Assembly: GCA_964016885.1 (NCBI GenBank)
Contig: OZ024741.1
Span: 380,680,001-380,744,000 of the forward strand
From: Eledone cirrhosa
Lineage: Eukaryota
DNA length: 64,000 bases
Reading direction: 5' to 3'
Positions 11,771 through 44,959 of this stretch are shown piece by piece. Made by a program: the position numbers and the translations under genes. Within the stretch, counting starts at the first letter, position 1, and every line of letters starts with the position of its first letter. The notes under the pieces were generated by a model. The model searched no databases and was not told the origin of the DNA. It saw only the letters and a list, made by a program, of their open reading frames with translations.

Positions 11771-12169
11771 ATTCAAAATGTTAATAAATGAAAAATATTC
11801 TAATAATCAAAATATATATTTTATTATACATATTTCAAAGGTACAATGGTGTTTAAGTACGTTTTCTTCAGACAAAATATATGATTTGATATGTGACATA
11901 CCGCTACAGTTTTGATTATTCAATTCCAGTATTAGCATATATATATATATATCCAATTAGGCAGACTCTTTCCACTTAAGAAAAAGAAAATAAACAGAAC
12001 ATTTTAAAAGAGAACTCTTTAAACTGCACCATTAGACAACAGTTATCGGGATACAGTAATTAAAGAGCAGATAACTATCTAGAAATTAATTGTAAAATCT
12101 GATCAATAAGGTGAGTGGTTTTCAAATAATTGTTGTAATACCATGCATGTACAGCTAAAATTATTATTA

Positions 12170-15100
12170 CTTTGATATCTCAGTCATTGTCGTTATGTAA
12201 CTGGAAAATTTAACCTAATTAACATCAAGCCACTACTCAGATAATCAGGACATATCTGTCAATCCTTGCAGTTCCCAGTAGACATGCCTCCTGAAGTGTT
12301 TCAAGAAAGGCGGTTGGGCTGATTTAACCAGCCATGGAAACTCTTGGAGATAGTACCTAGAGCTCCTATAATGATGGTGACGACTTAGATCTCATGACAA
12401 TCCTAAATTTTTTTCAGTTCCCAATTCAGATCCTAGTACCAATCAATTTCCTCCTTTTCCTTTCTTGCACTCTTGTGTCAAAGGGGCAAGCTACATCTAT
12501 AATCAAGTAAGATCTTTTTTCCTTCTCAAAAGCCACCAGGTCAGGCCTATTGTTTTCTAACTTTTTGTCCATTTGTATCCTGAAATCCCACAGCAGCTTC
12601 ACCTGATTGTTTTCTATCACAGACTCTGGCTTATGCTTGAACCATTTCCTAGTATGAGGTGATTTGTTTAGTTTGCATAAATGCCAGTGAATCACTTTTC
12701 CTATGATACCATGTCTCCATCTTTTACGAATCTGGCTTAGGGCGTTTACACTTGGATACGATGTGAGCCACAGTTATCTCTCTCCCAACAGATCCTACAG
12801 AGCGAGTTCAGTATTTACACACAGATATGATGTAAGCCACCGTTTTTTCTTTCTCTCCACAGATCCTACAGAGCAGGCTAGCCTCCTCTTTGTCGATATG
12901 GTGCCTCATCCACTTTTTTGTAAGGGCTTTCTCCTGGGCATTCCCTCCTTAGCTTTTTTAAGATCCCCTTTCTATAACCAGTTCTATGAATGTAGATCTC
13001 TGAATTCGGTTTTCTTCAAAAAGATGCTATGAATGGCCTTTTCATTCAGGTTGTTTTTCCTCTTTGTTGTTACTTCTTTCTTGGACATCACCCTGATCTA
13101 CTATCTCCTTATTAACACAACCTTAAGCATTGGCTCATTACTCGTAGACACATATTTGTGTAAACAGTTCTTCTCCATTTGAACACAATCCTCCATGCTG
13201 GTTAGACATCTTCCACCTTCAGATCTCTTTCAGTATCAACGTCACCATTCTTATGAAACATACTGTAGGTAATCATTAATTTCCTTTTCTTTCTATCCAG
13301 TTCTTTTTGCTCATTTTGATTCCATTTAAGAATCCCTGCACTGTACTTAAAAGATAGACACAGCTCGGAATTTACTGCACTTATGGCATTTCTACTATTA
13401 AGTTGTGATTTTAGTATGGGCCTTACTCTCCTTATATATTCAGATCTTATTATTTCCTTCATTTGATTGTCCTTCGTGATATCTGCCTCCAGTACACACA
13501 AATATCTATATCCCTCTTCTGTGTCAATCTCTTTTAGCATCTCACTCATTAGTACCTCAATTCCTTTGCATTTTTACAATTTATCTCTCTTCATGCTTAT
13601 TAACACCAAATTCCATACATATATCATGGCTGAAAGTTTGCATAGTGTTAGCAAGTATATCCAAATCATTCTCATTGTTGCCAAAGAGTTTTAGGTCATC
13701 CATGAAGAGGAGGTGGTTGATGGTAAGCTCTTTTATTCCCAGTTCATATCCTGCCTTCACTCTTTGCAAATCAAGGTACAAGGATATGAGGGTAAGGACA
13801 AACAATAAAGGGAACAGACTATCATCTCCTTGCAAGATATCTCTCTTGATTTTCACTCCTCCCAAGGATTCTTCCCCTGATGTTAGCTTTACCTCCAAGG
13901 TCTTCATGCAGTCTGTTGTTTTACTGCCACCATGAAGATTTCCAGACACTCAGTTATCCAAGAATGAAGAACCATGTTGAATGTCTTCTTGTAATCTATC
14001 GATCCCATGGCATGACCAGTAAGCCTCCCCTTGCTGTTCCTTATTATAATCTTGTCAATAAGTAACTTTCTGTTCTTCCGGCAATAAGTTATTTATGTAG
14101 AGATGGTGGTAAATTTCCTCAGACGTAATCCTTGTTAGCAATATCCACATCAAGGACATATATGTGGTAGGCCTATAGTAGCTAACGTCATTTCCTTTGG
14201 CATGGTCATTAAAACCATGGTACTCTTTGTCAACCACTGAAGTTCTTCACCTGACACTAAGCAGTCATTGATCATGGCTGTCAGTATTATGTGAAGAGAC
14301 GTCATATTTTTAGTTCACTATACTTACACATCATCTGGGCCTGGCGATTTCCAGTTGGTTAATTTATTGGCCTGCTTTTTAAGGGTTTCAACCAAGATCC
14401 TCAGATCAGATTGTTGGTGTGCTTGTTCATTAACCTCCATTTAACTGTCTCAATCCATTGTGCCCCACTATTATGCTAAACATCCTGCTCCTATATCCCT
14501 CTCCAAAATGTGTTGGTCTGCTCAACCTCAGGAATAGCATCATTGGCTCTTTCTTTCCTTTCACCTTGTTCAAATAATATTTTTTGGTTGTTGTCAAACA
14601 CAAAGTTTTGTTTATACTGGCTATCTTTGCTCTCATAGCTTTTAATTTTTTCACTTTTGGCTGACACATTGCTTTAGTTCCTTTATTATAACATTTAGCC
14701 CTTGTGTTGTATTTCCTTGTCAATCTATCCTTAGTACCTATGTTTTGTAAAGACTTAAGCTTCCCTTCTTATATCTTTGATTTGACCATTTGACCACTTC
14801 TTCCATCAGGGTTCTATTCTTTTTTATCTGTTTTCCTTCATTTTAATACCAAACAATTTTTTCACCACATATGCAGCTGCTTTGAGGATGTTGTTGCATT
14901 GTTGAGGATTATTTACCTCAAAGTATGGTTCTCCCCAGTTTACCTTAACTATTCTTTCTTTTAACTGTTTTTTGTCTAAAAATCTTAGATTCATAGGTTT
15001 TCTACTATCATTATTCATTTCATCCACCACTAATTCAGAATATCAACAAAATCTTGCCCTAGCCCATCAGCGTTAATTTTCTCAATAGCCGTATCTTTAC

Positions 15101-15640
15101 TTGAGATGTTATTTATCTCAACCATTAGATCATTGTCTTCATCAGTTACTTCCTCAGATGTTACAACCACTTCACTCCCATTTTCTGCTGGCTCATTTGC
15201 CTAATTTACCCCACTTTACATTTCCAGCTTAATCTCTTTACTCAGTTCTTCCAATTCCAACTCACTTATTCATCCATTAGTTCTTATTACATGAGCCTGA
15301 CCCACTAGTTTTTGTTCACTTAATTCAAATAGCACAATATCGTTCCAGATTTTATGCATTAATTCCCCTTTCTTAGTGGGATCACTTTCAGATAACATTA
15401 CATTAGTTTTATTTAATTTCTTTCTCCAGTTGGTTCTTGCCCAATTCCTTCTTCTTCCTCCATCACCAGCAGTATTTGAATGACTGCCTGATTCCTATTG
15501 CTGGGCCAGGGCGTACTTGCTGGGTGAGATTCCTTCACATGAATTTCCAGCCTCCTTCACACCAGGTTTAATATTCAAGCACTCATAAAGAGGATTACTG
15601 AATTCTAAGTTTGCACTATTACCAGTGTTTTTAAGGTGAC
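12170..15640 (-). mobile_element. R4/Dong-like non-LTR retrotransposon (RT + restriction-like endonuclease), near full-length, heavily decayed (copy A)
   Basis: ORF pieces: RT (ILQGDDSLFPLLFVL, HLLFMDDLKLF; 13581-13949) and RLE (WDFRIQMDKKLENNRPDLV...IIDVACPFD; 12426-12695). N-terminal region is homologous to 30561-31478, and the 3' UTR matches 26821-26868. (ATT)n on the plus strand at both ends. Confidence 0.9.
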
Positions 15641-15660
15641 TATTATTATTATTATTACTT

Positions 15661-15692
15661 TGTGTAAACCCTTGTGGTTAATAAAGAAAGCA
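15661..15692 (+). mobile_element. 32-bp 3'-terminal stub of a Tx1-like LINE
   Basis: tgtgtaaacccttgtggttaataaagaaagca matches the terminus at 16622-16653. Confidence 0.8.
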
Positions 15693-16653
15693 TCAAGCGA
15701 AGACCGAGAGGGAGTGCTTAGAGACTGAAATGTCTTCAGGCGCTCACAGCCCTCGACCAATCGGGCAATGTGATTGGTGGAAACTCCACCTCGGTGTTCT
15801 ATAGAGGATTAGTGGAGGGGAAGAGCGACGCCGTTCTTGGGGTAACTCTAGGCATCGACGAAAATCAACTAGCCAATCTCTTCGTAAGAACTCTCAGACC
15901 GGGGCCTATGGACAACTTCCAGAAATCCCTGGGCTGGCAGTGCTACCGAGGAGCTTTGCCAGTTCGCGATAAACTCTACAGGCATGGAGGTGCCATCAGC
16001 AGGGCATGTCCTAGATGCGCGCAGGGCGACGAAACCGTCCTGCATGCACTTGTCCAATGTCCGAGCATTGCTGAATTGTGGGTTTATGTCAAACACCTGC
16101 TGTCGCATGTAGAATGGATCTGTCTATCAGCTGAGTCCATCGTGAGGATTGCCCCGTCCTCTTCCTTTAGCCGGGAAGGGCAGGCAGTTTTTATCTGTCT
16201 GGTGGCCATGGCGAAAAAGATAGTATGGTGGAAACGTTTGAAAGGGCTGAAGACAACCACTTACCTCTTCGGTGATGCTCTGATTAACTTTTCCAAATTT
16301 CATTTGAAAAGGAAAATCAGGGTAGAGAGGGAAGTGCTCTCTTCCCAGCATTTTATTGAAAGATGGGTGAGAGAAGCAAGAATGGCCCGAGTGAATGGGC
16401 CTACTCTGAGTAAGTGTCTGTAAATTAAAGGTGGAAAACTGGGAGAGGGCACTTGCCCTGGTGGTCAGGGTCACTGTGATCTTTTAATTGGCTTTCTCCA
16501 CAAATGTCCCTCTGAAGTTTCCCCCTATTGGGGAATTTTTTATTGTTATTATTTGTTACATCCTCTGAAATGCCCATTTGTACCGTCCTGTATTGTCCTG
16601 TACTTTCCTTAATGTCTACTTTATGCAAACCCTTGTGGTTAATAAAGAAAGCA
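15693..16653 (+). mobile_element. 5'-truncated Tx1/L1-clade LINE (ORF2 C-terminus + 3' UTR)
   Basis: ORF 15770-16423 with C-terminal zinc motif CPRC...ETVLHALVQC. AATAAA, then an (ATT)n tail. Same subfamily as 26911-29810. Confidence 0.92.
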
Positions 16654-16899
16654 TTATTATTATTATTTGAGTCTTACTTCAAATTCTGCTTCTTTCACAA
16701 ACCAGAAGTATGAGGCTAAATTTGATAATACACACATTTACAATCAATTGCCATACATATGAGTAAAAGTCTTTGCAGGGATTTTAAATTGAAAATATCC
16801 TTCCCAGGATTTGAACAGTGACAGTCAGTACTATTTTTTGTATCTCTTACAGAGATGACTTTCTAGGTATCTGGTCAAAATATTTTTACAGTACTCTTT

Positions 16900-17103
16900 T
16901 GGCAGTAACGGTAGAGCATCAGACAATATGCTTTATGGCATAGGGTTACCCCCCTTTACAATCTGAGTTCAAATCCTGCTGAGGTTAGCTTTGCCTTTCA
17001 TCCTTACAGGGTCGATAAAATAAAGCACCAGTAATGCACTGGTGTTGATTTAATCGACTATCCCCTTCTCCCAAATTGCTGGCCTTTTTCCTAAAGTAAA
17101 AAC
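16900..17103 (+). mobile_element. ATT-SINE (long subtype)
   Basis: SINE consensus followed by an (ATT)n/(CTT)n tail at 17104-17180. Confidence 0.85.
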
Positions 17104-17138
17104 AATTATTATTATTCTCATTATTCTTCTTCTTCTTC

Positions 17139-17180
<42 letters not shown>

Positions 17181-17368
17181 GGGTGGTAGTTTGGTAGAAT
17201 CGGTAGGGCGTTAGATACCATGCTTTGCAGCATAGGAGTTTAGGCACTTTATATTTTGTGTTCAAATCCCGCCAGGTTAACTTTGTCTTTCATCCTTACG
17301 GGGTCAATAAAATAAAGTACCAGTAATGCACTGGAGTAATTGCTGGACTTGTGCCAAAAGTAGAAACA
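17181..17368 (+). mobile_element. ATT-SINE (short subtype), inserted in the tail of the previous SINE
   Basis: Full SINE consensus ending ttgtgccaaaagtagaaaca. Confidence 0.88.
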
Positions 17369-17395
17369 TAATAATAATAATAATAATAATAATAA

Positions 17396-17510
17396 TTGTT
17401 TCTACTTTAGGCACAAGGCCAGCAAATACCCAGTACATTACTGGTACTTTATTTTATCGACCCTGTAAGGATGAAAGGCAAAGTTAACCTCGACGGGATT
17501 TGAACTCAGA
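17396..17510 (-). mobile_element. ATT-SINE 3' half, inverted
   Basis: Reverse complement of the SINE 3' half, with (AAT)n on the plus strand on both sides. Confidence 0.88.
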
Positions 17511-17827
17511 TTGTAATAATAATAATGATAATAATAATAATAATAATGATTTCATTTATTGGCCACAAGGACCGACATATAGGGGACAATACAAAAGACT
17601 GGGACAGTGGGGTTTTACAGAAAAATCGAGTAAACAATATGAATAACAATAACAAAGTAACAATAACAAAGTAACAATAAAGTAACAATAAAATTACAAC
17701 AAGAGAAAATTCCCCAATAGGGGGGATGACCACCTAGGGTTCGCTCAGGTACCCCACCAGTCCTGAACGACCCGACGCTTCGAGAGCACCCTGGAAGGGC
17801 ACCCCTCTCCTCCTCAAATTTACCTAC

Positions 17828-20800
17828 CTACAGCCACATGACCAGAGTAGGCCCACTCACACGGGCCATTCTCGCCACATTCACCCACCTTTCAGTAAGG
17901 GGGGGGCAGTACTTCTCTCTCCACCCTCACCTTCCTTTCCAAGTGAAACTTGAAAAAGTTGATAAGGGATTGGCCGAAGGGAAAAGTGTATGTCTTCAGT
18001 CCTTTCAACCTCGTCCACCATACAACCTCTTTCGCTACTGCCACCAGACAGAGGAAAATTGACTGCCCTTCCTGGCCAAAAGAAGGCGGCGGGTCGATTT
18101 TCACTATGGACTCGGCCAATAGCCAGATCCGTTCTACACGCGACAACGGCTGTTCAACATAACTCCACAAATCAGTAATGCACGGACACTGGACGAGTGC
18201 GTGCAGAACAGTTTCGTCGCTCTGCGCGCATCTCGGGCCAGTCCGTCTGACAGCACTTCCGTGCCTGTAGAGTTTATCCCGAACCGGCAGTGCCCCCCGG
18301 TAGCACTGCCAAGCGAGGGATTTTTGGAAATTATCCATCGTCCCCGGTTCGAAAGTCCTCCGGTACAGACTGGTTAGTTCGACTTCGTTGACTACCAGAG
18401 CCTCTCTGAGTGCGTCGTCGCACTTGCCCACCACTAATCCTCTATAGAACTCGAGAGTGGAAGTTCCACTGACCGTATTTCCCGCCTGGTAGAGAGCAGT
18501 GAGTGCCTGGCAACATTCCAGATGCCAGTCACCCAGTCTCGGTCTCTTCTTGACCCAGGACTGCAGCTCAGTCAAAGAAACGAGCTGCGGAAAGGCCCGT
18601 CTGACAAATAGCGACCACACCTGTTCACCGTTTAGGCAGAATATCTGGAGATGCCTCAGCGCGTGCCGGCGCATCATTAGCCACGGCATGCCCAGCCCTC
18701 CACATAGAGGGTGCTGTCAACAGATGGACTGCCTCACCAGCGGAACCTGACCCCTCCACAAGAATTTAAAGACGAGCCGCTCCAAGATGGCGAGGCGCGA
18801 ACGGGGGCACGGGACGACGGTCAGACGGTAGTAGATGTACGCGTTCGCCACCTTCACCCGACCTTTCAGTGATAGCTTCATCCCAGTCCATTTCTGGGTG
18901 AGACTGGCTACTCTGCCCGTCACCTCGTCCCAATTCTTATCCATCTGGAGGTCTGGCCTGAACCAAACCCCTAGCAACTTTACCGGTCCATCCGTCCAGC
19001 GCCTAACGATGCTGTTGGACGGTATGGACTTTTCCGGGTTAAGTTTTGCTCCCGTCAACCTTTCATATTCCTCCAATAAGTTGCCGACCACCTCGATTTC
19101 TGAGGTGTCCGACACCATCACGGTGATGTCGTCCGCATAAGCCGACACAGCCTTTCCGCGTCCTGGTTCGAGCAGGATGCCCTGCAACAGATCCAGCTCC
19201 CACAGTAGAGGGCTCGAGAGTCAATATGTACAGAAGGGAGGAGAGAGGGCACCCTTGACGGACAGATCGGGAGACCTGAAACAGTTCCGAGAGGTAGCCA
19301 TTAATTTTGACCATCGAGCAGGTGCCGCTGTGCATTGCAGCGATCCAGCTTCTGAAGAAGGGGCCGAAGCCAGCCTCCTTGAGTACAGCCTCCAGGTGCC
19401 GATTGTCGACCCTATCGAATGCTTTCGATTGATCTAAATTGATCAGAGCCCCACCGCATTAAGTGGAGGTTGTCGTGTATGGACCTGGTTGAGATTGCGC
19501 AAGTTTGCGCCTCCCCAACCAAATCCCCGACGACAAGCGCCAACCTCTTCCCTAACACCCTGGCCAAAATCTTAAACTCTGTGTTGAGCAGAGTTATGTG
19601 CTTGAAATTGTCTAATGTGTCCCTCTTGCTGTCGTCTTTCCTTATCAGCGTCACTACGCCCCGGCTCACAGAACTAGGAATACTCCCGTTTTGCTGCCAG
19701 TTGCAATAGAGGGCTTCGAGGAGATTGGAGAACAAGTCTGGCATATTTACATAAAGCTCGTAGGGCAGACCATCCAAACCGGGTGACTTGCGCCTCATGC
19801 AGCCGACAAGGGCATCCTGAATCTCGGCTGAAGTAATTGGCCTTTCGCAGCGCCCAGCGACAGCCGTCGAGAGTTGCGGCAAGCCATCGAGGTAGGGACT
19901 GAAGTCCGCCACCATCTCTGACCCGCCACTTCCCCTGAACAACCGGGCAAAATGTTGGCGAAAGGCCTCACACATCCTCTTGGAATCGCTCATCTCGTGC
20001 CTGTCTCGGTCCGTCAAAGACCGAATCGTGGTTTTAATACCACGCTGCGCCTCTGCCACGCGGGCCCATCGGACAGCTTTGGTTCCCTCGTTTCTCAGAG
20101 CACGCGCCTTAGCTCTGACAATGCAACCTTCGTCTTTCGCATTGAAGAAATGGTCTAAGGCCATTCTCGCCGCTAGCACGTCAGTTGCAATGCCACTACC
20201 AATAGCCTCGTCTAACTTATCTACCAACTCTCCCTCCTTTCTATTTTTCTCTAACGCAACTTCTTTGCTAAACTCTATCGACATTACTCTAATCTCTCTT
20301 TTGAGAACCCCCCACCATCTATTGTTGACGACTCCCCTGTCAACTTTTTCTTAACTAAATTATTGACCTGGTCCCTGTAAGCATTACGTGCCGGAAATGA
20401 CATGTTTAGCTTCCAGTAACCAGGTCCTAACCTACGCGTCTTATCTAGGTCGACCATACAGATCACAAACTTGTGATCTGAATAGGCGACCGTTTCAAAA
20501 CGTGGACAGCTTACACTATTTCTGTCTATTTTCCTAATGAATATCTTGTCTATATACGATCTAGATGGCCCTATGCGGTTAGCCCAGGTTCACACTCGCA
20601 CATTAGGGAAATCTAATCGGTACCTGTCAGACAGTTGGAACTGGCTGATCAGGTTCTTGAGGCTTTTGCACCCCCCGCTCCTATCGGATACTCCCACACA
20701 GTCCCAGCGTGCGTCTAAGATGCCGTTGCAGTCCCCCGCTAACAGTAAAAGCCGAGACGTACACAGAAAGGCTTCCAAGCGTCTAAAGAAGTCCAGCCGT

Positions 20801-21152
20801 CCTGCCCCAGTAGGAGCATAGACGGCCACCAGTCTAAAGGCACCACTTTCGTTATTGTTCACGTCCCGGACCACCAACTTCCCGTCCGGGTCCCGGAAGA
20901 TCGACCTTACCTCGAGATCCAGCCTTTCCTAAACAGCACTGCAGCCCCGCTTCCCATTCCCGGCCGGCTAACAGATGCAAATATCTGATAGTCGTCGAAA
21001 ATGGGGGCTAGTGCGCGCGTGTAGGAAATCCTGGTCTCGCTGACGGCAATTACATCCATTTCTATAGACCTGAGGTCGTTGAGCAGGTGACCCTGCTTCC
21101 AGGACGATCCCAGGCCTCGAACATTTAAACATCCTACTCTTAATACGGCCAT
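17828..21152 (-). pseudogene. Tx1-like ORF2 (APE endonuclease + reverse transcriptase + C-terminal zinc motif), disrupted
   Basis: MAVLRVGCLNVRGL...AVSET; AVYAP; AGDCN; PGYWKLN; KSPGLDGLPYELY; RQGCPLS; AYADD; RC...HALVQC. Spread over several frames. Confidence 0.92.
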
Positions 21153-21187
21153 GTTGGCAGGTTAAAAAGAGAGAGAGGAAGGTTTAC

Positions 21188-23050
21188 TTACCTTCCGGGC
21201 TCTTGTGAAGGTCGGGTTGTTCGACCTCCATAGTTGGTGGGATTTCTTTTGGGAACCCTTTTAAAAGTATTGAAGTGGGTTTTACGTTCGGGTTCCCACG
21301 TCCCGAGGAAAGATGTCTTGTATTTCTTTGAATAAATCGTGCGACATTCGCACCAGAACCAAATCTTCCGGCAGGCGAAATGTGCTCGATTTAAAGATTT
21401 CCCTCTCTTTTTGTATATTTTCACTTCGTGCTACGAGGGCCATCAGTTCCTTGTTGGCCCTCCTGACGAGCACGAAGTTTTGTATGTTTTATTGGTGTGA
21501 TTTTATTTGTTTGCGTGGCTGTGGTGGTGATGGTTTTGGTGGTGTTGTTTCGGTTGTATCTGTGTTTGTTGTGAGTGCGGTGTCTGTGGTTTCAGATGTT
21601 TGTGTGTATATTTGTTCTTGCGTCTGTTTAGGTTGTTTGCGTTTGGGGGATTCTGGTGATGGTGATGGTGGTGTTGATGTTGCTGTTATTGCAGAGATGT
21701 TTGCATGGGTGGTGTCTGCGTTTTTTTTTATTGTGGGTGATTCTGTGCTTTGTTGAGTTTTTTTTTTCTTTTTGTGTTTCCTCTTTTGTATTTTGGGGAT
21801 TTTGGTTTTCCCTCATCTTCACTACTGGTCGATGAAGGGTCTGTGTATGTAAGTGTGTCTGTACGTATGTTTATGGTTTTATTGGTGTGTGTATTTTGGG
21901 GGGGAGGGGGAATTTGACAGCTTCCCTCATTTCCCCCCTGGATGGTCAATGTTGGTGGTGGTCTTTCTATTGGTGTTGTTGTTGGTGGTTTTGCCGGTGC
22001 TGGTGTTGGTTGTGGTCCTCGCCCCGGCGTCGGCAGTAGTGGAGCCTTTCGACCCCTTGCCTCTTTCAGCAGTTGAGGGAAGAAGGCTCGCAAATTGGTT
22101 TTTTCCCCACAAACAAAACACTGCAGCCTTTTGCCTTCGGTCATAATGTGAATGACCGTCCCATTCTGAAGGCGGATGTGGTTCGGGATTGTCTTCACAT
22201 TCTCGGACCTGATCTGGAGAAGGATCTCCAGGTCAACCCCGGACCAGTCCTCTCTGGCCGTTCTGGTCACTTCTATAGGGACGGTATCCGTCCCCTCCAC
22301 AATCACACATCCCAGAAGCCACCACATGTCAAGTTCTGGTGGGATTCTGGGAATGCGGAGACGGGCCGTTCTTTTTCCTATGACCTTGCTGGTTTTGCAA
22401 GGAGTCATAGCGTGTTTCATAGCGAGGGCTTCTGACTTGAACAACACCGAAATGGTGCTGTACGGTCTGCCCCTCTCTATGTATTCGGTGTCTTCTCTGA
22501 TGCACCTCAGCGCGACTTCGACATCTTCTTGTGGGATTAAAGCTGCTCTTTCGGTTTGTGCTGAGATGCATCTATAATGCACTGTTCTGCGCTCCACTGC
22601 CTCCATAGCTTCTGCCCGGGACAGTTAAGTTGGCCCAGGTTTGCTCTTGCTTGATGAGCTTCCATGCCTGGGCCAACTTTTCATCTTTGTTTGAGAGGTC
22701 CATGTTGAAGCATGGCCTCTTTTTTGCTGCTGCCGCAGCGAAAGTGTTCTTCTTGTTTTCGTTGGGGGTGTTGTTGTCGTTGTCGTTGTTCTTGTTGATG
22801 TTGTTGTTAGCACTGTCGCTGTTATCATTGTTGTCTTTGTTGCTTACGTTGTTATCGGTGCAGTTGGTATTGTTGGTGTTGGTGTTGTCGCTATTTGTTT
22901 TCATGTTAGTGGTGTTTATATTGTTGTTGCATTTGTTATTTTTTTTTTTGTTATCTGTAATTTCGTTGTCGCTGTTACTGTGATTTTTTTCAAAATTAGA
23001 GTTCTCATTGGTATCATTGGTGTTTTTGTTTACATTGTTTGTGGTGGTGT
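21188..23050 (-). pseudogene. Tx1-like ORF1 (Asn-rich N-terminus, degenerate zinc knuckle, Pro/Thr-rich tail), disrupted
   Basis: ORFs 22572-22904, 21728-22606 (CFVCGEKTNLRAFF) and 21282-21473 are homologous to ORF1 at 37237-38835. Confidence 0.8.
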
Positions 23051-35300: not shown

Positions 35301-36116
35301 GTACCGGAGGACTTTCGAGCCGGGGACGATGGACAATTTCCAGAAATCCCTCGCTTGGCTACTGGGGGGCACTGCTGGTTCGGGATAAACTGTACAGGCA
35401 CGGAAGTGCTGTCATACGGACCTGCCCAAGATACGCACAGAACGCCGAAACCATTCTGCACGCACTTGTCCAATGTCCGTGCATTACTGACTTGTGGAGT
35501 TATGTCGAACAGCTACTGTCGCATGTGGAACGGATCCTGCTATCGGTCGAGTCCATTTGTGAAGATCGACCCGCCGCCTTCCTTAGGTCAGGAAGAGCAG
35601 GCAAATTTTCCTCTGTCTGGTGGCCGTTGCGAAGAGGTTATATGGTGGACGAGATTAAAAGGACTGAAGACAGACGCTTTCCACTTCGGCCAATCCCTCA
35701 ACTTCTTCAAGTTTCATCTGGAAATAAAGGTGAGGGTGGAGAGAGAAGTGCTGCTGCCCAGTACATTTGCTAAAAGGTGGATGAATGTGGCGAGAATGGC
35801 CCGTGTGAATAAGCCTACTCTGACCATGCGATTATAGGCTAGCTAACTTGAGGAGAGGGGTGCTCTCCCTGTGTGCCCTAGAAGCGCAGGGTGGTTCAGG
35901 ATTGGTGGAGTACCTGAGTCACCCCTGGGTCGTCCACTCCCTATAGGGGAATTTATTTTGTTATATTTATGCATAATTTATTTTATATTTTTATATTTTC
36001 ATTGTTAAATTAGTCTTGCTATTGTGCACTTTTACTAGACCTTATTGTAAACCCCCACTGTCCCTGTCTTTTTATTGTCCCCTACATATCGGCCCGTGTG
36101 GCTAATAAATAAAATC
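32359..36116 (+). mobile_element. Tx1/L1-clade LINE truncated just upstream of ORF2 (copy G, same subfamily as B)
   Basis: ORF2 ATG at 32448 (MAILRVGSLNVRGL), APE and RT fragments (VYADD), end of ORF2 at 35837. (ATT)n on both sides. Confidence 0.93.
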
Positions 36117-36154
36117 ATTATTATTAGAAACAATTATTATTATTATTATCATTA

Positions 36155-36217
36155 TATTGTCCTGTACTGTCCTTAATGTCTACTTTATGTAAACCCTTGT
36201 GGTTAATAAAGAAAGCA
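36155..36217 (+). mobile_element. ~63-bp 3'-terminal stub of a Tx1-like LINE (D subfamily)
   Basis: Near-identical to 16591-16653 and embedded in (ATT)n. Confidence 0.88.
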
Positions 36218-36253
36218 ATATTATTATTATTACTATTATCATTATAGTTGCAT

Positions 36254-36740
36254 TTATCTTCCCATTATTACTATCTTTTGTATTTCTCCTATACGCGGGT
36301 TTCCTGGGATTTGCGATAAGTAATCATTAGACCCCTTAGGTATCATTCCTAGAGCGCCTACAACCACTGGTATTGTTTTAGTTCTCAATTTCCACATTTT
36401 TCCAATTTCTATCTCCAGGTCCTTATACTTGCTCAATTTTTCAAATGTTTTTATATATACATTCTTGTCTATTGGAACGGACATATCAATTAGCAGGCAT
36501 ACCCTCTTTTTAAAGTCCTTCAGTATTATATCAGGTCTATTTGCATCTATTTTTTAGTCAGTTTGGATGCTAAAGTTCCACAAGATTGAGATGTGATCTT
36601 TTTCAAGTATGGGAGGTGGTTGATGCTCCCACCAATTCTTTTGATGGGGCAGGTCAAAATGCTTACACATTATCCAATGTATGTATTGTGCAGCTCTGTC
36701 ATGCTTATTTAGGTATTCGGTTGGAGCTATAGGACTGCAT
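36254..36740 (-). mobile_element. RLE-domain fragment of a second, divergent R4/Dong-like family
   Basis: Translates C..IAPTEYLNKHD...IHW..CK...WNFSIQTD...NRPDII...LIDMSVP...EKLSKYKDL...IPVVVGALG. Flanked by microsatellite, and clearly diverged from copies C, E and F. Confidence 0.87.
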
Positions 36741-36757
36741 TATCATTATTATTATTA

Positions 36758-36852
36758 GGTTGACTTTGCCTTTCATCCTTATGGGGGTCGATAAAATAAA
36801 GTACCAGTAATGCACTGGTTAATTACTGGCCTTGTGCCTAAAAGTAGAAACA
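36758..36852 (+). mobile_element. ATT-SINE 3' half
   Basis: SINE 3' consensus between (ATT)n tracts. Confidence 0.88.
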
Positions 36853-36869
36853 ATTATTATTATTATATT

Positions 36870-37054
36870 GAGGGCGGTGAATTGGCAGTATCGGTAGAGG
36901 GTCGGATATGCTTTCCAACATAGTTACGTCCCTTTACGATCTGAGTTCAAATACCGCCGAGGTTAACTTTGCCTTTCATCCATACAGAGGTCGATAAAAT
37001 AAAGTACCAGTAATGTACTGGGTATTTGCTGGCCTTGTGCCAAAAGTAGAAACA
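36870..37054 (+). mobile_element. ATT-SINE, full length
   Basis: SINE consensus. Its (ATT)n tail leads directly into Tx1 copy H. Confidence 0.9.
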
Positions 37055-37236
37055 ATTATTATTATTATTGTTGGTGAAGCCACGCTTCTTATCGCCTCCA
37101 GTCTTTTTCAACGTTTTACCTCTTTTTCAACCGTTCTAAACCTTTTATTCAAGTTTTAAGTTTGATAAAAGTTTAGAAGAAGTGACCCACCTAACACAGG
37201 GGTTCACTAGTAAATAATACGGCACTCCTTTACGGG

Positions 37237-38835
37237 GTGTCGTATTCGTATATGTGTAAAAATATATTTTTGAAAAATTTCAACATGGATAACACAAGAA
37301 AGAGAGAGAGCGCTGTCAGACAACACAGAGAGAGGGAGACTTTATCAGCATGTCAACAAGACAGCGTTCAAGCGGAGGTAAATATAAACGAAAATATTAC
37401 AAACGAAAAAAAGTTTGTTACAGATTTAAAATTACCAAATATTTCTAACACAAACAACACCAACAATAACACCAACAACATCACCAACAACAACACCAAA
37501 AATAACAGCGGTAAAGTCGAGAACGACAATAACAAAAATAACAGCGGTAAGGTCGAGAACGACAATAACAAAAATAATAGCGGTAAGGTCGAGAACGACA
37601 ATAACAACAGCCACAACAACAATAATAGTAGGAACAGTATCAACAAAAACAACAATAATAACAACAGCCACAATAACAGTAACAGCAGCAACAGTATCAA
37701 CGAAAACACCAACAACTGTACCAGCGAAAAGAACAACAATGACACCGATACCTGTAATAGCGACCTCAGCACCACCAGTAAGACCAGTAGCGGCAGCAAT
37801 AGTGGTGCTGCTGAAAAAGGGACCACTTCTTTTGCAGGTGTCGCCCGAAATATCGAGACAGTGTTAGTCACAGAGGAGGAGATGGCAGTCGCAAGGGCCA
37901 TGGTGACAAGAAGCGCAAATAGAGTTTCCCTGAAACCTCCACCCAATTTTTTCAAGGACCAGCAACTACGGACGGTGACTTACCGCACCGTAAGCAAAAT
38001 CTCACATCGAGTGGAGAGAGCCACGGAGGCTCAAATCCAAAAGGCCTTGGGGTGCGTCTGGGCACGCAAAACCCACGTCACCCGAGGCAGAAAGTACGCC
38101 ACAGTAGACGTACTTTTCGCCACTCCCCAGGAAGCAAAGTCTCACTCTTTGGAAACCCTAAAGAGTGAGGAGTTAGTCTTGGTGCCCTCCTACTGCGGGC
38201 AGAAAATTGTGAGGGTCCCACCCGACGTGCCTATACCTTGGTTGGCCGCGTCTGTCCTTGCTGGAATTGAGAACAGGGCGACCATGCTGCAAGTAGAAAA
38301 AATAGGGAGAGAGAACTGGTCAGGTATAGGCATGCAAATGCTTATACAAACTGACCAGGAATGTATCGAGGCTATCCCCGATATCATAGACTTCGAGGAA
38401 GGACTCCAACTCCCTATAAGTGTAGAAGGAAGACGGCCAAAATGTTATCTCTGTGGGTCGAAAGGTCACCTCAGGGCCTTTTGCCCGCAGAAGACACCGA
38501 AGAGGGCCCTTCTCCTTCCAATACCTGGTCCGCTGCTACCAAGAGCAGGACAGGCAACAAACGAAGAAGCCCCTTCCACGGTGAGTAGGAAGGCAACGTC
38601 CGTAGCACCCGTACCAAGGCCACGGATAACTAAAGCAGCATCATCAGTAGCGGCAACACCAATAGCTACATTTGAAATAGCTACACCAGCAACAAAATTG
38701 CCGAAGAGGGCTCCACTACCACCACCAACAGCTGTGGAGCACATACCCCTCCCAGACGTCACAGAATCCGACATGGAGTTTGAGGCGGGAGTGATGTGGC
38801 AAACAGTCTGCCACAAAAAACAAAAAAACCCTTAG
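37237..38835 (+). CDS. Tx1-like ORF1p (Asn-rich repeats, CCHC zinc knuckle). Probable start ATG ~37285; probably continued originally to ~39942 via a frameshift in the A-run at ~38815-38828
   Basis: 532-aa open frame with CYLCGSKGHLRAFC (CX2CX4HX4C), collinear with ORF1 of copy B. Confidence 0.8.
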   Translation: MSYSYMCKNIFLKNFNMDNTRKRESAVRQHRERETLSACQQDSVQAEVNINENITNEKKFVTDLKLPNISNTNNTNNNTNNITNNNTKNNSGKVENDNNKNNSGKVENDNNKNNSGKVENDNNNSHNNNNSRNSINKNNNNNNSHNNSNSSNSINENTNNCTSEKNNNDTDTCNSDLSTTSKTSSGSNSGAAEKGTTSFAGVARNIETVLVTEEEMAVARAMVTRSANRVSLKPPPNFFKDQQLRTVTYRTVSKISHRVERATEAQIQKALGCVWARKTHVTRGRKYATVDVLFATPQEAKSHSLETLKSEELVLVPSYCGQKIVRVPPDVPIPWLAASVLAGIENRATMLQVEKIGRENWSGIGMQMLIQTDQECIEAIPDIIDFEEGLQLPISVEGRRPKCYLCGSKGHLRAFCPQKTPKRALLLPIPGPLLPRAGQATNEEAPSTVSRKATSVAPVPRPRITKAASSVAATPIATFEIATPATKLPKRAPLPPPTAVEHIPLPDVTESDMEFEAGVMWQTVCHKKQKNP

Positions 38836-39280
38836 ATTCACCCTCCAAAAGCGAAGGCATACAAAGAGGGGTAAAGGCAGCAAGGAAACTTGCAGCAACA
38901 CCACCACAAACACCAACAACGCAAACACAACAAGACACACACACCAAACAGCAACAAGAAGAAAATAGCAACAAAATCACCCCTCCCGCCAAAAAGTGCA
39001 CAGCCATAAACATGGCAAAAAAAAAACTCACACAATATATAATGCAGCACACAGACATCACAGAAAAAAACTACTACACCCCACCAACACCAAGAACTCT
39101 CCCGACAAACATAAGCATCATCGAAAGAAGAAAACGGCAACAAAATCCCCCCTCCCCCAAAAAGTACACAGCCAAAAACATAGCAAAAAAAGAACTCATA
39201 AAATATATAAAGCAACACACAGACATCACGGAAAAAAACTACTACACCCCACCAACACCTCTCCCGACAAACATAAGCGA

Positions 39281-39696
39281 TGTAGTGACCTACATTCCGC
39301 GGCTCACATACATTCTCTGTGCGGGATTTGGCTCAGCTCAGCCAATCAGCGCCAGTAGAAGAGGATGTATCCCTACGCGTTCTGAGGGAGAAATAGCCCG
39401 CAAAGATTTGAGGACGCTATCTCTTCCAGCTAGGCCGTGCTAAGGTAAACACCACTTGTTCTTTTGCTCCGTAAGCACAAACAATATGTAACGACAAAAC
39501 ATTACCTACGAGCCTGGCCAAACGCCTTCAGCCAGTTGCCCGTATTTTCTCTTGTAATCTTAATTGATTTGTTTTATTTCTCTTGGCATGCCAACTCAAC
39601 CTCTGTTAATAAATAATGTAAAACTAAGCTGAAGTCGTTGTTGATATTCCTATCACATCTTTCTGCCAAACCTGGTTCCTCGTGGCAACCTTACCA
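39281..39696 (+). mobile_element. Putative solo LTR-like insert within ORF1 of copy H
   Basis: Abrupt compositional change. TG...CA ends (tgtagtg...ttacca), CCAAT at ~39342 and AATAAA at ~39608. No counterpart in copy B, and no TSD recognised. Confidence 0.45.
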
Positions 39697-39974
39697 ACTT
39701 CTAAATACTTCTCCGCTAAATTGGTGACTTATATTCAACAAAGAGAAACATTCTTTTCCTTTAGCATCATCGAAATCTCAATAGAACAGTACAAACCCTT
39801 AAAACAAAAATTCCCCAACACAGTTGGAGACTTCAGAGGGACGGTTACCAAGAGGATATACACCGACATCCTCTTGGAAACACCCATGACCAGCGAAAGG
39901 GACGGTTCTACTGTCCCTTCACCACACGAACAAGGTAAGTGACCCTTTCTCATTTGCCCCATTTCTCATCCAAT

Positions 39975-42900
39975 ATGGCTGTACTCAGAATAGGCAGTAT
40001 AAATGCACGTGGCCTGGGGTCATCTTGGAAGCAGGGTCACCTGCTCAATGACCTCAGGTCACTAAACATAGATGTGGTGGCCATCAGTGAAACCAGAATC
40101 TCCGAGGCACGGGCCTTCGCACCGATCTTCGGCGGCTACGATGTATACGCATCTCCCAGCCGTCCAGGATCGAGGGGAGGGTTGGATCTCGCAAGGCTAT
40201 CTTCTTGGACCCAGAAGGTAAGTCGGTGGTGCTGGACGTGACCGGCAGTGAAGGCAATGCTTTCAGGCTAGTAGCCGTCTATGCCCCAATGGGGGCAGGA
40301 TGGCCAGATTTCTTCAGACGTCTAGAGACTTTTCTTGGAACGTCCCGCTCTTTAGTGTTAGTGGGCGACTGGAACGGTATCTTGGATGCACGCTGGGATC
40401 ATGTGGGGCTAGTGGATAGGGGAGGAGGGTGCAAGAGCCTCACCAACCTGCTCAGACGTTTTGAACTGTCTGACAGGTATCGACTGGATCACCCGAATGT
40501 GCCAATGTGGACATGGACAAAACGCATCGGGTCATCCAGATCGTATCTAGATAGGGTATTCTGCAGGGAACTAGATAAGGCTAGTATAAGGTGTCAACAA
40601 TTTAAAATAGTCGACTACACAGACCACAAATTTGTGATCTGTGAGATCAACATAGACAGACTTCATAGACAAGGGCCTGGTTACTGGAAGCTGAACGCGA
40701 CTTTCCCAGCGTGCAAGGCCTACAGAGACCGGATTAGCGTATTAGTTAAGCGGTCGTCAACAACAGGTGTGGTTCACCCTGAAAAGGGCAATTAAAGTAG
40801 AGTCGATTAGGTTTAGCAAAGGAGTAGTGATAGAGGAAAATAGAGTAGAGGGAGAGCTAGTCAGAAAGCTAGAAGAAGCGTTTAGGACAGGCATCGCAAC
40901 CGACGTGCTTGCGGCCAGATTGGCACTCGACCAATTCTTCAACGCAAAACACGGAGGCTGCGTTGTCAGAGCTAGAGCGCGTGCTCTGAAACACGAGGGG
41001 ACAAAAGCCGTCCAATGGGCCCAGGTGGCCGAGGTGTGACGTGGCAACAAAGCCACAATTCGGTCTTTGCCTGACCAAAACGGGTGCGTGATGCTCGAAC
41101 CCAAGCGGCACTTGGTTGAACTGTTCGGGAGTGGTGGTGGCCCGGATCGGGGCATGGACTTCAGTGCATACCTCGACGACCGCAGCACAGTGTTGCAAAG
41201 AGCCAATAACAGCCGGTCAAATACGGGAAGCGATGGCTAAGTGCACAAGAGGTAAATCGCCAGGTTTAGATGGTCTGCCCTACGAGCTTTATGCATTTAT
41301 GCCAGACTTGTTCGGTGACCTCTTGGCAGACGTCTACTGCAACTGGCATCAGAACGAGAGCATTCCCAGTTTTGTGAGCTGAGAAAAGACCCGAACAAGG
41401 GAGATGTTATTGATAATTTCAGGCCCATAACGCTGCTAAACGCAGAGTTCAAGATTTTGGCCAAGGTGTTAGCAACGAGGTTGGCGCTTGTCGTCAGGGG
41501 TCTATGGGAGAGGCGCAGACATGCGCCATTCCGGACAGAGCCATACACGACAACCTCCACCTCATGCGATACATCATAGAGAGGGTGGTTAAGGAACCTG
41601 GCAAGGGTGGGGCCCTGATCAACTTGGATCAATCCAAAGCATTCGATAGGGTCGACCATCGGTACCTGGCGGCGGTTCTCGAGGCAGCCGGTTTCGGGCC
41701 CGTTTTCAGGCGTTGGATCGCAGCAATGTACAGCGACATCTGCTCAGTTGTGAGGGTGAACGGTCACCTGTCGCAGCCGTTCAGAATCATGCGCTCAGTC
41801 CACCAGGGTTGTCCCCTCTCGTCCCTCTTGTACGTATTGGCTCTCGAGCCATTACTGCACAAACTGGGGGTGATGAGGGGCGTCCCACACGAACTAGGAT
41901 GTGGGAAATCCGAGTCGGCTTACGCTGACGATGTCACCGTGGTGGTGTCGAGCACCAGACACCTCCAGATGCTCGGCACCGCTCTCAAGGAATACGAAGC
42001 GGTGACAGGAGCAAAGATAAACCAGGAAAAGTCGGTGGGCTTGCAGCTAGGCACCTGGAGAGGCAAGTCTATGCCGTCCAACAGCGTCGTGGGGCGTTGG
42101 ACGGACAGACTGGTTAAATTGCTTGGGATTTGGTTTGGACCGGACCTCCAGATGGAGAAAAACTGGAACGAGGTGACGAGCAGGGTGGCCTCCCTCACCC
42201 TGAAATGGGCGGAGAGGAAGCTGTCCCTGAAAGGCCGGGCGGAAGTGGCGAATGCGTACATCGCATCCGTCATCTGCTACCACCTCACCGTCGTCCCTTG
42301 CTCCAGCCCAACTATCACCAAAATGGAGCGCCTCCTCTTCCACTTTTTGTGGAAGGGACGCGCTCCCATGGCCAGACAATCCCTCTGCTGTCAACACCCG
42401 TTGCGTGGAGGACTGGGCATGCCATGGCTGATGATGCGCAAACATGCGCTGAGGCTGCGACATCTCTGGTGCTTCCTTGATGGTGAACGGGTGTGGTCGC
42501 CGTTCGCCAGGCATGTTTTCCCCCAGCTCGTCTCCTTGACGGAGCTGCAGTCCTGGGTCAAGCGAAGACCGAGGGATAGCGCTTGGAAACTGGAATGTCT
42601 CCAGGCACTCACTACCCTCTCCCAGTTGGGCACCAGTATCGGTGGAACATCCACCTCGGCGTTCTATAGAGGACTAGTGGAGGGGAAGAGCGACGACATT
42701 CTCGGGGAGATCCTGGGCGTCGAAGAAGATCAGCTGTTTGCTCTCTTCCGGAGAACTTTCAGCCCGGGGCCTATGGATAACTTCCCAAAATCCCTGGCCT
42801 GGCAGTGCTACCGGGGAGCGCTGCCGGTTCGAGATAAGCTCTACAGGCACGGAAGTGCCGTCAGCCGAGCCTGTCCGAGATGCGCGCATAGCGACGACAC

Positions 42901-43291
42901 CGTTGTGCACGCACTCGTTCAGTGCCCGAGCATTACTGACTTGTGGAGGAGCTATGTCGAACAGTTGCTGTCGCGTGTGGGACTGATCCGGTTGTCGACT
43001 GAGTCCATTGTGCAGATGGTCTCGTTGTCTTCCTTCGAGGAGGAAGGGCAGGCGGTTTTCATCTGCCTGGTGGCCATGGCTAAAGAGATGGTGTGGTGGA
43101 CAAGGTTAAAAGGATTAAAGACAAACACTTTCCTCTTCGGCGAATCCCTGATTAACTTTTTCAAATTTCACTTGAAGAGGAAAATCAGGGTGGAGAGGCA
43201 AGTGCTGCTTTCTAGCAAGTTTGTTGAAAGGTGGGTGAATGTAGCGAGAATGGTCCGAGTGAACGGGACCGCTCTGAATATACGTCTGTAG
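39975..43291 (+). pseudogene. Tx1-like ORF2 (APE + RT + zinc motif). 5' half frameshifted; last 595 codons open
   Basis: MAVLRIGSINARGL...AISET; VGDWN; YLDRVF; TDHK; LDQSKAFDRVDH; HQGCPLS; AYADD; CPRC...HALVQC. Confidence 0.93.
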
Positions 43292-43618
43292 TTTGAGAGA
43301 TGGAAAAATTGAGAGAGTGCGCTTGCCCTGGTAGTCAGGGTGGCCGTGGTCTTTTGTGTGGTTTTCGCCACGAGTAACCCTCGGAGGTTTCCCCCCTATT
43401 GGGGAATTTTTCATTGTTTCAATTTTCATTTTATTGTTTATATATATATATGTTTTATGTCTTTTTTTTCTTTTCTTATATAAATAATAAAAATATTTAC
43501 ACGCACAAACCCACATCGTACCGTCCTGTTCCGTCTGTGATGTTTTTCTTGATGTCAGCCCTTGTGGCCAATAAAGAAATCATTATTATTATTATCATTA
43601 TTATTATTATCATTATTA

Positions 43619-43830
43619 GTGGATTGGCAGTGTCAGTAGAGCATCAGACAACATGCTCTACTGACATTGCCAATGGCCCTTTACGTTCTGTGTTCAAATC
43701 ATGCTGAGGATAGCTTTGTCTTTCATTCTTACAGGGTCAATTATATAAAGTACCAGCAATGCACTGGTGTCAATTTAATCAACTTTCCCCTACTATAAAA
43801 TTACTGGCCTTGCACCTAAATCAGAAACCA
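43619..43830 (+). mobile_element. ATT-SINE (long subtype) with (ACT)n-like tail
   Basis: SINE consensus immediately after the tail of copy H. Confidence 0.82.
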
Positions 43831-44959
43831 TTACTACTACTACTACTACTTACTTACTTATACATGCAACAATGCAAATATCTAGATTCGTTGATCAGAG
43901 GTAGCAATTAGTGGGTGATCATAATTATTTATTTCTTTGATGTGAGGAAACAGTTGATTATGTTAACCCCAGTACACAACTGGTACTTACATCTCAATTC
44001 TGGAAGAATGCAAAGCAATGTTGATATTAGCATGATTTTAAGTCTGAATATAAAGAGCCACAACTAAATATCAGAAGGCATTTTGTCAGTGGCGCTATCA
44101 ATTCTTCTAAGCCAGTACTCTCAGACAGAATTCTTTTGTCATCTAAGATATCTAGATGAAATAATACAATTGATAAAGTACTAACTGGTGGTTTACTGTT
44201 TTCATTTATGTTCCCTTTGTTATACACATTGTTATTAAGATCGTTCATTATTGTTAGTCATTGTGTTGATTCTAAGGGAAAGACACAGCTAGCTTTTGCA
44301 AAGATTCAAACTTGTATAAAAATGTAAATGTAATATTCTAAGCCCTGTGTTATTTGCCAATTGTCAAATATATTTGATTTATATTTATATGTACGTGATT
44401 TTATATAAAGTGACATCAAAGAGAAATGTTCTTGATTTGTTGAATAGAGCAATCCTTTATATTTACAATGATTATTCTCCTTTAAAGATAAATAATTAAG
44501 TCCTGAAATTAATCCTGCTTCAGTAAGCATACTTTGAATATTGAGAAAGCAACAGTCTTCTTCATGTAAACATGGAAAATGGACATTAAACTCCAAATAT
44601 ATACTCATAAATTTTTATTTTGGCTCTGAATGCTTTGACTGATTTATAACTGTCATAACATATGGAATGCATTCTATATTTGCTGTATGAAATAGAAACA
44701 AACAGAAAATGACATTCGATTAAATGAATTTGACAATATAGGTTGCAGAGAGAATATTTTTCCTTTGCAACTTGCAATACATCATAATGGCTGTCCATGG
44801 CATCTTGCCAATCTCTTAGTTAAGGTCAACATGGTGTAATGAATAGAGTGGTGAAGTTTAGACAGGTGAAAAAGGTTCAATCCCAGCTGTCAACAGAGAC
44901 ATTACATTACTCTTGAGATTTCTACTGTATTACATATATTAGACAGAGTTTAAGAGCAT

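Follow-up and report, generated by a model that had tools for sequence, protein, structure and literature searches.

Strand-polarised piles of Tx1-type, Dong/R4-type and SINE retroelements joined by ATT repeats in Eledone cirrhosa

The window, the whole stretch of 64,000 nucleotides analysed here, contains a dense pile of retroelements between positions 12160 and 43860. About 18 end-to-end insertions had been proposed in a first-pass annotation, and the same 18 were counted: seven Tx1-type copies (five large copies and two stubs), five Dong/R4-type copies and six SINEs, covering 30,955 of 31,701 bp (97.6%). The features as read from the sequence are:

12160-12169 (+), short ATT tract, left edge of the pile
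12170-15640 (-), Dong/R4-type family A copy, old, degraded, 5'-truncated; 72-75% identical to the 23369 copy, best other copy 77.5%
15658-15692 (+), Tx1 3' stub of 35 bp, preceded by (TAT)n at 15641-15657
15693-16652 (+), Tx1-type copy, 5'-truncated; 5' junction tract-free, (ATT)5 behind
16668-16898 (no strand assigned), older unrelated repeat between the two parts of the pile; 417 candidates, other copies 73-83% identical
16890-17104 (+), SINE 1, old; followed by an ATT/TTC/ATT tract at 17105-17180
17181-17368 (+), SINE 2; AAT in the 3' flank marks the left polarity flip
17397-17513 (-), SINE 3, 5'-truncated; own-strand ATT on both sides
17548-23342 (-), Tx1-type copy, full-length, degraded; ORF1 and APE-RT ORF2, own-strand ATT on both sides
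23369-26868 (+), Dong/R4-type family A copy; RT (PF00078), about 600 bp missing at the 5' end, (AAT)n on both sides
26911-29812 (-), Tx1-type copy, 5'-truncated; the mixed AAT/ATT tract at 29811-29841 marks the right polarity flip
29842-31659 (-), Dong A copy with internal deletion; three pieces, 90-94% identical to the 23369 copy
31660-32293 (-), second Dong A copy, 3' part; abuts the 29842-31659 copy with no tract between
32359-36116 (+), Tx1-type copy truncated just upstream of ORF2; TTC/ATT tract 32290-32358 before it
36155-36217 (+), Tx1 3' stub of 63 bp, ATT tracts on both sides
36246-36740 (-), Dong/R4-type family B copy, 5'-truncated; own-strand AAT on both sides
36758-36852 (+), SINE 4, 5'-truncated
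36870-37054 (+), SINE 5, full length; pol III A- and B-box-like motifs by eye
37070-43581 (+), Tx1-type copy, full-length; ORF1 37195-38835, APE 40091-40795, RT and zinc finger 41417-43291
43619-43830 (+), SINE 6, old; ATT then (ACT)n at 43831-43850 closes the pile
17369-29825 (-), 12.4-kb block, presumably inverted, with tracts and elements all reversed relative to both flanks

Repeats had been claimed at nearly every junction. An ATT or AAT tract is present at 15 of the 17 element junctions, and each of the 15 tracts named in that annotation was found in place:

Left part: 15641-15657, 16653-16667, 17104-17180, 17369-17395, 17515-17547, 23343-23368, 26869-26910
Right part: 29811-29841, 32318-32357, 36117-36154, 36218-36245, 36741-36757, 36853-36869, 37055-37069, 43582-43618

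The tract-free junctions are 15693 and 31659, the latter a deletion-like join of one Dong copy to another. The tract at 29811-29841 is imperfect, reading AAT first and then ATT, and TTC runs occur inside the tracts 17104-17180 and 32290-32358. Tracts of at least 12 bp reach a density of 0.47 per kb in the pile versus 0.063 per kb elsewhere (25 tracts in 399.8 kb sampled at fixed genome positions). None of the 18 elements lies within the body of another; interruptions had been called almost absent before. The older 231-bp repeat at 16668-16898 divides the pile into two.

The polarity of the tracts reverses at 17368 and at about 29825, and from the sequence the 12.4-kb block in between is likely to be an inversion with its breakpoints in two tracts. 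Among the 36 element ends of the pile, tallied by eye, 29 follow the polarity rule of their family, five are tract-free, one is opposite and one has ATT and then (ACT)n. The elements differ in age: stubs excluded, they are 77-98% identical to the best other copy examined, and the Tx1 copies of the pile, which fall into separate subfamilies, share just 68-88% identity with one another.

The APE-RT family, which we take to be Tx1 from its architecture and known motifs, is best preserved at 37070-43581. Its ORF2 matched PF03372, PF00078 and PF13966 in Pfam, that is APE, RT and a C-terminal zinc finger, and its ORF1 of 546 aa contains a weak, putative CCHC knuckle (PF00098, E 0.0038, below cut-off). 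The best PDB matches of the endonuclease were L1 endonuclease variants, and protein homologue searches returned almost no named matches. Intact ORF2 frames of 1139 and 1145 aa occur elsewhere in the genome, and intact ORF2 proteins bearing the APE catalytic motifs were found both for the ATT-type and for the ATCT-type lineage described below. In the Dong-type copies RT (PF00078) was the only Pfam match, with no APE; the C-terminus aligned weakly with R2 RLE domains (E 0.005, PD..D..K in register). The predicted order, RT followed by CCHC and a putative restriction-like endonuclease, agrees with the Dong/R4 architecture. No named reference was among the 120 listed of 1897 homologues. The Dong 5' end is similar to the local Tx1 5' ends, and a search for an HDV-like ribozyme in two loci with full Dong 5' ends gave no Rfam match, only AT-repeat artefacts.

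Enrichment of the repeat in 5' flanks and clustering against a random model had been suggested as checks, and both hold genome-wide. ATT occupied the 5' flank of all 30 best-scoring copies in one Tx1 subfamily, whose neighbours further upstream varied, and in a second, young subfamily ATTATT stood at most 4 nt before 806 of 813 minus-strand 5' ends. This near-invariant phase before full-length 5' ends could stem from repeat that the transcript itself brings along. For Dong, (AAT)n precedes the 5' end of 27 out of 30 copies, whose truncation points are many and varied. A tract was found at the 5' end of truncated copies in 19/29 cases for Tx1, 33/47 for Dong A, 8/8 for Dong B and 10/21 for the ATCT-type (background 3.3% and 0.15%), counts which are pooled, take in cluster neighbours and are not independent. 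Position-ordered sets inspected by eye gave 10/18 for Dong and about 4-6/12 for Tx1; in the latter set 2/12 had (TTC)n and 1/12 the opposite strand.

At the 3' side, AAT was found on the sense strand of 73/75 and 17/17 Dong ends. Flanks conforming to the rule were more frequent at 3' ends than at truncated 5' ends, both for Tx1 (67/74 vs 19/29) and for Dong A (73/75 vs 33/47). Counting only tract-adjacent ends, ATT was read at 106/107 Tx1 and 109/113 SINE ends and AAT at 119/123 Dong ends. The strand rule is thus fixed: ATT for Tx1 and the SINE, AAT for Dong. Dong family A alone has 3,365 exact 3' ends in the genome. Tail-to-tail junctions of Tx1 with Dong number 169 versus about 0.14 expected, those within a family only one site (Tx1-Tx1) and two sites (Dong-Dong); Dong3'-to-Dong5' (one site) and Tx1 3'-to-Dong5' (none) are too few to inform. 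For 25 of the 40 Dong ends in the region C1:1-55.5 Mb, an ATT-type Tx1 end is found no more than 20 kb away, against 3.4 under a null shifted locally within the region.

A sister Tx1 lineage targets (ATCT)n, with 6,155 ends in a pattern search; a DNA similarity search with its 3' region gave no match, probably since common words were skipped, and the pattern search was used instead. ORF2 of the two types is 67-69% identical. ATCT-type elements form piles apart from the ATT piles: none of the 40 Dong ends lies near an ATCT-type end, and tail-to-tail junctions of ATCT-type Tx1 with Dong number zero. The hairpin loop of the endonuclease differs consistently between the types, with ancestry as a confounder (the lineages were placed by a quick tree).

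Target-site duplications of at least 8 bp flank 20 of 32 SINE copies and 0 of 32 controls, and they start with ATTA. The 3' repeat of the SINE is therefore mostly target-site duplication, which speaks against the earlier statement that the tail of each element is the repeat; several Tx1 copies contradict it as well (L075, L131, L139, L198 and L207 show an exact duplication or a target-type repeat and no added tail). SINE insertions are also widespread in unique DNA, at short ATTA sites. Their 3' end is identical to Tx1 ends at 16, 14, 12 and 10 of 24 positions and to Dong ends at 8-9, a modest similarity for Tx1, the free-alignment score being matched by 2 to 199 of 1000 shuffles. The SINE may resemble the MetaSINE superfamily with its central Meta domain. 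In the accessible part of the supplements of PMC4824008 the motifs were not found.

We interpret the pile, with a probability of roughly 0.7, as the product of separate insertions of different ages into tracts whose strand rule results from nicking of opposite strands by Tx1 and Dong, each insertion splitting and partly duplicating its tract. Within one and the same repeat, the Tx1 APE endonuclease would likely nick the AAT strand, and the restriction-like endonuclease of Dong the ATT strand; the orientation of each family would be fixed because the two enzymes cut opposite strands. For target-primed reverse transcription the nick would lie at the TpA step, judged from the phase of the 3' junctions to within a base or two. 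The pile would likely grow because each split and partly duplicated tract leaves repeat on both sides, a feedback suggested by adjacency, and slippage would lengthen the tracts. Element bodies would be spared because the repeat is absent in them. The ATCT-type Tx1 would act likewise on (ATCT)n, and the SINE, with its Tx1-like polarity and similar 3' end, would be mobilised by ATT-type Tx1 and, being abundant, would seed short ATT sites. The earlier proposal that an APE and an RLE family converge on one triplet repeat thus stands insofar as both insert there genome-wide, even as 5'-truncated copies; they use opposite strands, and choice of the site by the endonucleases is only likely. A wider reading is doubtful: a guild in which Tx1 split between (ATT)n and (ATCT)n by a small hairpin-loop change (Ile-Gly vs Ser-Gly), Dong took the opposite strand of the TpA step and, through cohabitation in the piles, captured a Tx1 5' module, and the Tx1-driven SINE seeds new sites across the genome. 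If true, much of the long ATT repeat in the genome would owe its origin to the guild as well as housing it.

From the junction sequence alone, an endonuclease preference looks the same as annealing of AUU RNA ends. RNAs ending in AUU (Tx1, SINE) or AAU (Dong) might prime at loosely specific nicks, and only on the exposed complementary strand; the endonuclease specificities would therefore not have converged. Such annealing would produce this polarity too, as well as SINE duplications that begin with ATTA, it fits the better obedience of 3' than of truncated 5' flanks, and according to the available text of PMC1950540 targeting also depends on factors other than nicking specificity. We nevertheless consider it unlikely, as the five Tx1 copies without an added tail and the hairpin loop that tracks the ATT and ATCT types, though confounded with ancestry, stand against it. 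Broad insertion with survival only in repeat-rich, gene-poor, low-recombination DNA, the tracts being leftover tails, is far less probable still. Passive accumulation is proposed for Drosophila Waldo in the accessible part of PMC3812793, and since SINEs settle widely on short ATTA sites selection may shape the persistence of 6-kb copies. As the sole cause, however, survival is largely refuted already, for it leaves unexplained the 99% ATT right before 5' ends, the strand polarity and the fact that ATT and ATCT piles keep apart in one region under the locally shifted null.

Tandem duplication or mis-assembly through microsatellites, the latter a danger already named in the first-pass annotation, can hardly account for the array. 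No read or contig covers the entire pile (contigs end at repeats, other runs are RAD-seq), an orientation error might explain the flipped 12.4-kb block, and another pile holds identical Dong fragments. Against this, the Tx1 copies of the window are 68-88% alike and of separate subfamilies, the strand rule is not expected from mis-joins, and the same junction types, Dong 3' ends adjoining (TAT)n and Tx1 joined to Dong through ATT, occur in raw reads of two other individuals. The read runs X1-X3 may come from the assembly's own sample.

Insertion by Tx1 and Dong into simple repeats has precedents. Dong targets TAA repeats (available part of PMC3812793), which lie upstream on the sense strand (primer, PMC3774820). 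Known Dong elements of the R4 clade (Bombyx mori Dong, DongAg, Biomphalaria DongBg) and the copies described here have in common RT, C-terminal CCHC and a PD-(D/E)xK nuclease, the latter predicted here; unlike them, the Dong elements here form two families with thousands of copies, are interleaved with Tx1 and have a Tx1-like 5' end. The accessible text of PMC4494074 gives as Tx1 targets (TC)n for Kibi, (TTC)n for Koshi and (TTCC)n/(TTTC)n in crocodilians. Like Kibi and Koshi, our elements are APE-RT elements specific for a simple repeat, but (ATT)n and (ATCT)n are outside the targets given there, the Kibi/Koshi-type TTC occurred in only the two truncated 5' flanks noted above, and sister lineages here split two repeats within one genome. 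In the literature examined, no Tx1 element was described as targeting ATT or ATCT. In crocodilian SINEU/Tx1-Mar, use of Tx1 by the SINE was inferred from a common target, and tandem SINEs flank a duplication (same part of PMC4494074); that target is a Mariner element and ours a microsatellite, and the SINE here is pol III-type with some 3'-end likeness to the LINE. The SaTar arrays of guayule, rice, sorghum and citrus are non-nested, microsatellite-linked arrays of unrelated elements, as here, with occasional linker-deletion fusions (available part of PMC5907723). SaTars belong to the Mutator-like DNA transposons with terminal inverted repeats, sit mainly at (TA)n and, in the examples shown there, form clusters of a few kb, whereas the piles here reach 30 kb, show strand polarity and consist entirely of SINEs and of non-LTR retrotransposons from two nuclease classes. 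The strict polarity is new here.

APE-type targeting of microsatellites is called poorly understood in the accessible part of PMC3812793. For the mapping of specificity, and for repeat-targeted gene insertion tools, this genome provides a ready-made system: two intact enzymes of sister lineages (about two-thirds identical) that differ in target and have left thousands of natural insertions, together with a nuclease of unrelated type that probably acts on the other strand of the ATT repeat. Transposon hotspots are reported for Octopus vulgaris, with no mechanism given in the available part of PMC13282606; ATT piles offer a sequence-level cause for hotspots of this type. ATT markers in such genomes call for caution, as they will often lie at mobile-element junctions.

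The window is not exceptional: its pile is one among many of the kind, and two further piles of 27-32 kb lie within 55 Mb. Duplication rather than insertion seems to have produced some units in other piles, where two Dong fragments are 100% identical over 819 bp. Unequal crossing-over was considered as the origin of a tandem at C1 55.4 Mb and found no support, five copies showing no hybrid pattern. At least two further families also end in ATT, accounting for 9 of the 25 background tracts.

All 15 (ATT)n/(AAT)n tracts that the first-pass annotation had reported were present in the window sequence, which lies at G000:C2:380680001-380744000 in a 3.0 Gb animal assembly, probably from an octopus-like cephalopod judging by its repeat types. 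The pile at window 12160-43860 is occupied to 97.6% by 18 elements, has a tract at 15 of the 17 element junctions and shows a tract density about 7.5-fold that of the background (40 fixed-position samples of 10 kb). One pile family encodes ORF1 and an ORF2 with APE, RT and zinc finger and is read as Tx1-type; the other encodes an RT, a C-terminal CCHC motif and a restriction-like nuclease and is read as Dong/R4-type, both classes being assigned by domain architecture. An older 231-bp repeat divides the pile. Tandem duplication was ruled out as its origin, because the copies span different subfamilies and different ages. The last seven bases of the SINE, AGAAACA, occur within the tract at 36117-36154 and are possibly a nineteenth, minimal insertion. 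Outside the pile, at window 47000-49422, a LINE remnant with RT and PHD finger precedes (ATG)n and (AT)n runs.

Since a repeat 3' of an element proves nothing about its target, the 5' flanks were examined. In the subfamily of the full-length Tx1-type copy at window 37070-43581 (plus strand), ATT lies ahead of all 30 best-scoring 5' ends, the window's own copy included. By eye, the upstream neighbour of the other 29 was a Tx1 3' end in nine cases, a SINE 3' end in nine and an opposite-strand Dong 5' end in five. The enrichment proposed for 5' flanks was borne out in a second, young Tx1 subfamily, where ATTATT was found within 4 nt of 806 of the 813 minus-strand 5' ends (plus-strand counts double up and were left out), and likewise for Dong, with (AAT)n preceding 27 of 30 5' ends, some complete and others cut short at any of a dozen points. 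At truncated copies from pooled loci the 5' repeat was present in 19/29 Tx1, 33/47 Dong A and 8/8 Dong B copies, compared with 3.3% of background windows; this pool excludes copies that run past the locus edge or extend to the start of the reference, and it includes cluster neighbours. Position-ordered sets, judged by eye, were weaker (10/18 Dong and about 4-6/12 Tx1 truncated copies). Some Tx1 copies carry duplications without a tail. For Dong, tail and target are inseparable. The Dong copy at the sampled locus L044 has an inverted 5' segment, resembling twin priming, and (AAT)n still lies ahead of it.

The proposal that the tail of each element is the repeat mostly fails for the SINE. In 20 of 32 two-ended background copies a duplication of 8-28 bp begins at ATTA or close to it, as against none of 32 controls, and no more than 5 of the 32 background copies had at least three ATT units 3' of the SINE end; therefore the SINE "tail" is mostly duplicated target. 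Its polarity and the likeness of its 3' end to Tx1 ends (at most 16 of 24 positions identical) point to Tx1 as its carrier. Within 399.8 kb of background (L121-L160), a small sample with wide error, Tx1-like sequence makes up 4.8% and the SINE 2.8%.

The elements follow a strand rule. Read on the element's own strand, the tract is ATT at 106/107 Tx1 and 109/113 SINE ends and AAT at 119/123 Dong ends, counts that leave aside 295 tract sides without library match and in which a few Tx1 5' ends were tallied as Dong owing to a contaminated reference. Exact ends number 7,811 for ATT-type Tx1 and 3,365 for Dong A genome-wide. Tail-to-tail Tx1-Dong junctions, 8-38 nt apart, were found 169 times versus about 0.14 expected by chance, an expectation that errs slightly low, since the motif counted is longer than the one used for junctions; the spacer is ATT among the 100 matches listed. 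Tail-to-tail junctions within a family were found at one site for Tx1 and two for Dong. In the window the polarity reverses at 17368 and at about 29825. Both flips would follow from a single inversion whose ends fall within two of the tracts; alternatively, the block between them could be mis-oriented. Raw reads of two other individuals contain Tx1-ATT-Dong joints and about 17,000 loose ends in which (TAT)n adjoins a Dong 3' end. These derive from many loci, and no read spans the window pile.

Insertion is directed by the repeat, and the resulting piles are mixed. Clustering held against a locally shifted null: in G000:C1:1-55.5 Mb, 42 of 100 ATT-type Tx1 ends have a second such end no more than 10 kb away (null 5.7). 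For Dong, a Tx1 end was present at this distance or closer in 16 of 40 cases (null 1.9), and in 13 of these the two ends are on opposite strands. Two of three ATT regions chosen for dense ends contain long chains, one of about 32 kb and the other of 27 kb or more, so the window pile is ordinary for its genome and one instance of a genome-wide pattern. One region, G000:C1:55.423-55.456 Mb (L252-L256), has five Tx1 copies of full length that share about 99% identity, and in several of them the ORFs are intact. It also has two Dong B fragments that share their truncation and are 100% identical over 819 bp, which a simple crossover does not explain.

The background samples also exposed a sister Tx1 lineage with an (ATCT)n terminus and 6,155 exact ends genome-wide. 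ATCT was found at 29/41 of its 3' ends and 10/21 truncated 5' ends (background 0.15%), and its ends cluster with each other in 13/54. None of 40 Dong ends in G000:C1:1-55.5 Mb lay near it, and a genome-wide pattern search gave no tail-to-tail junctions with Dong. In a quick tree of 17 proteins the lineage branches as sister group of the ATT types as a whole (support 85), and one database protein falls within the ATT group. It has piles of its own and an intact ORF2 (L268:5299-8733, L133, L161-L190, G000:C1:52.84-52.86 Mb).

Target-primed reverse transcription is established, and from it we infer that Tx1 would prime off the AAT strand and Dong off the ATT strand, with a shared TpA step as the probable site. 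Each insertion would split and duplicate the tract, slippage would lengthen it, and later elements would settle between earlier ones and not inside them. Nicking is the more likely step to pick the insertion site (probability about 0.7), and annealing of the RNA end is the less likely one. Grafting of the endonuclease hairpin loop changes the specificity of L1 (PMC1950540). Among ATT types this loop is mostly Ile-Gly, with two degraded copies deviating; the others, only one of which had its ATCT end in view, have Ser-Gly. This difference is confounded with ancestry.

The locus is mechanistically informative and represents a form of already known microsatellite targeting. In the parts of these sources available, Dong targets TAA, including in a snail (PMC3812793), Tx1 targets on record are TC, TTC, TTCC and TTTC (PMC4494074), and plant DNA transposons form non-nested, microsatellite-linked arrays (PMC5907723). 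The accessible parts of cephalopod repeat surveys name Dong-R4 and L1-Tx1 and contain no target analysis (PMC13282606 and supplement; PMC8967140; PMC9068888). The literature covered contained neither an ATT- or ATCT-specific Tx1 nor Tx1-Dong convergence; Kojima and Fujiwara 2004, Repbase and the supplements of PMC4494074 lie outside this scope and may bear on it.

Within its initial 110 nt, Dong A has TCGCTCC..GTAAG plus a T-rich motif in common with three ATT-type Tx1 5' ends, with a score reached by 0-1 of 500 shuffles, on the same strand only. In the same shuffle test the likeness of the Dong A motif to the subfamily of the 37070 copy was not significant. The motif may reflect a shared promoter or splice-donor module, convergence or capture.

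Sites of the 5' motif of Dong A and Tx1
L036 and L046, sampled loci: Dong 5' end
Window 23212-23342, minus strand: motif site
L092, L102 and L107, sampled loci: motif sites

Other repeats also contribute tracts. A frequent family with a fixed TTATTATTATTA terminus followed by (TA)n is the source of 5 of 25 background ATT tracts.

Sites of the family ending in TTATTATTATTA
Window 49534-49653: family member
Window 51710-51788: family member
L121, L138, L151 and L155, background loci: family members

Another family terminating in ATT tracts (window 55240-55292, L128, L150) accounts by eye for 4 of the 25 and itself hosts Dong and SINE insertions. Beside an ATT pile, at L266:2134-5208, lies a 3-kb tandem repeat with a 1025-codon open frame of short repeated units.
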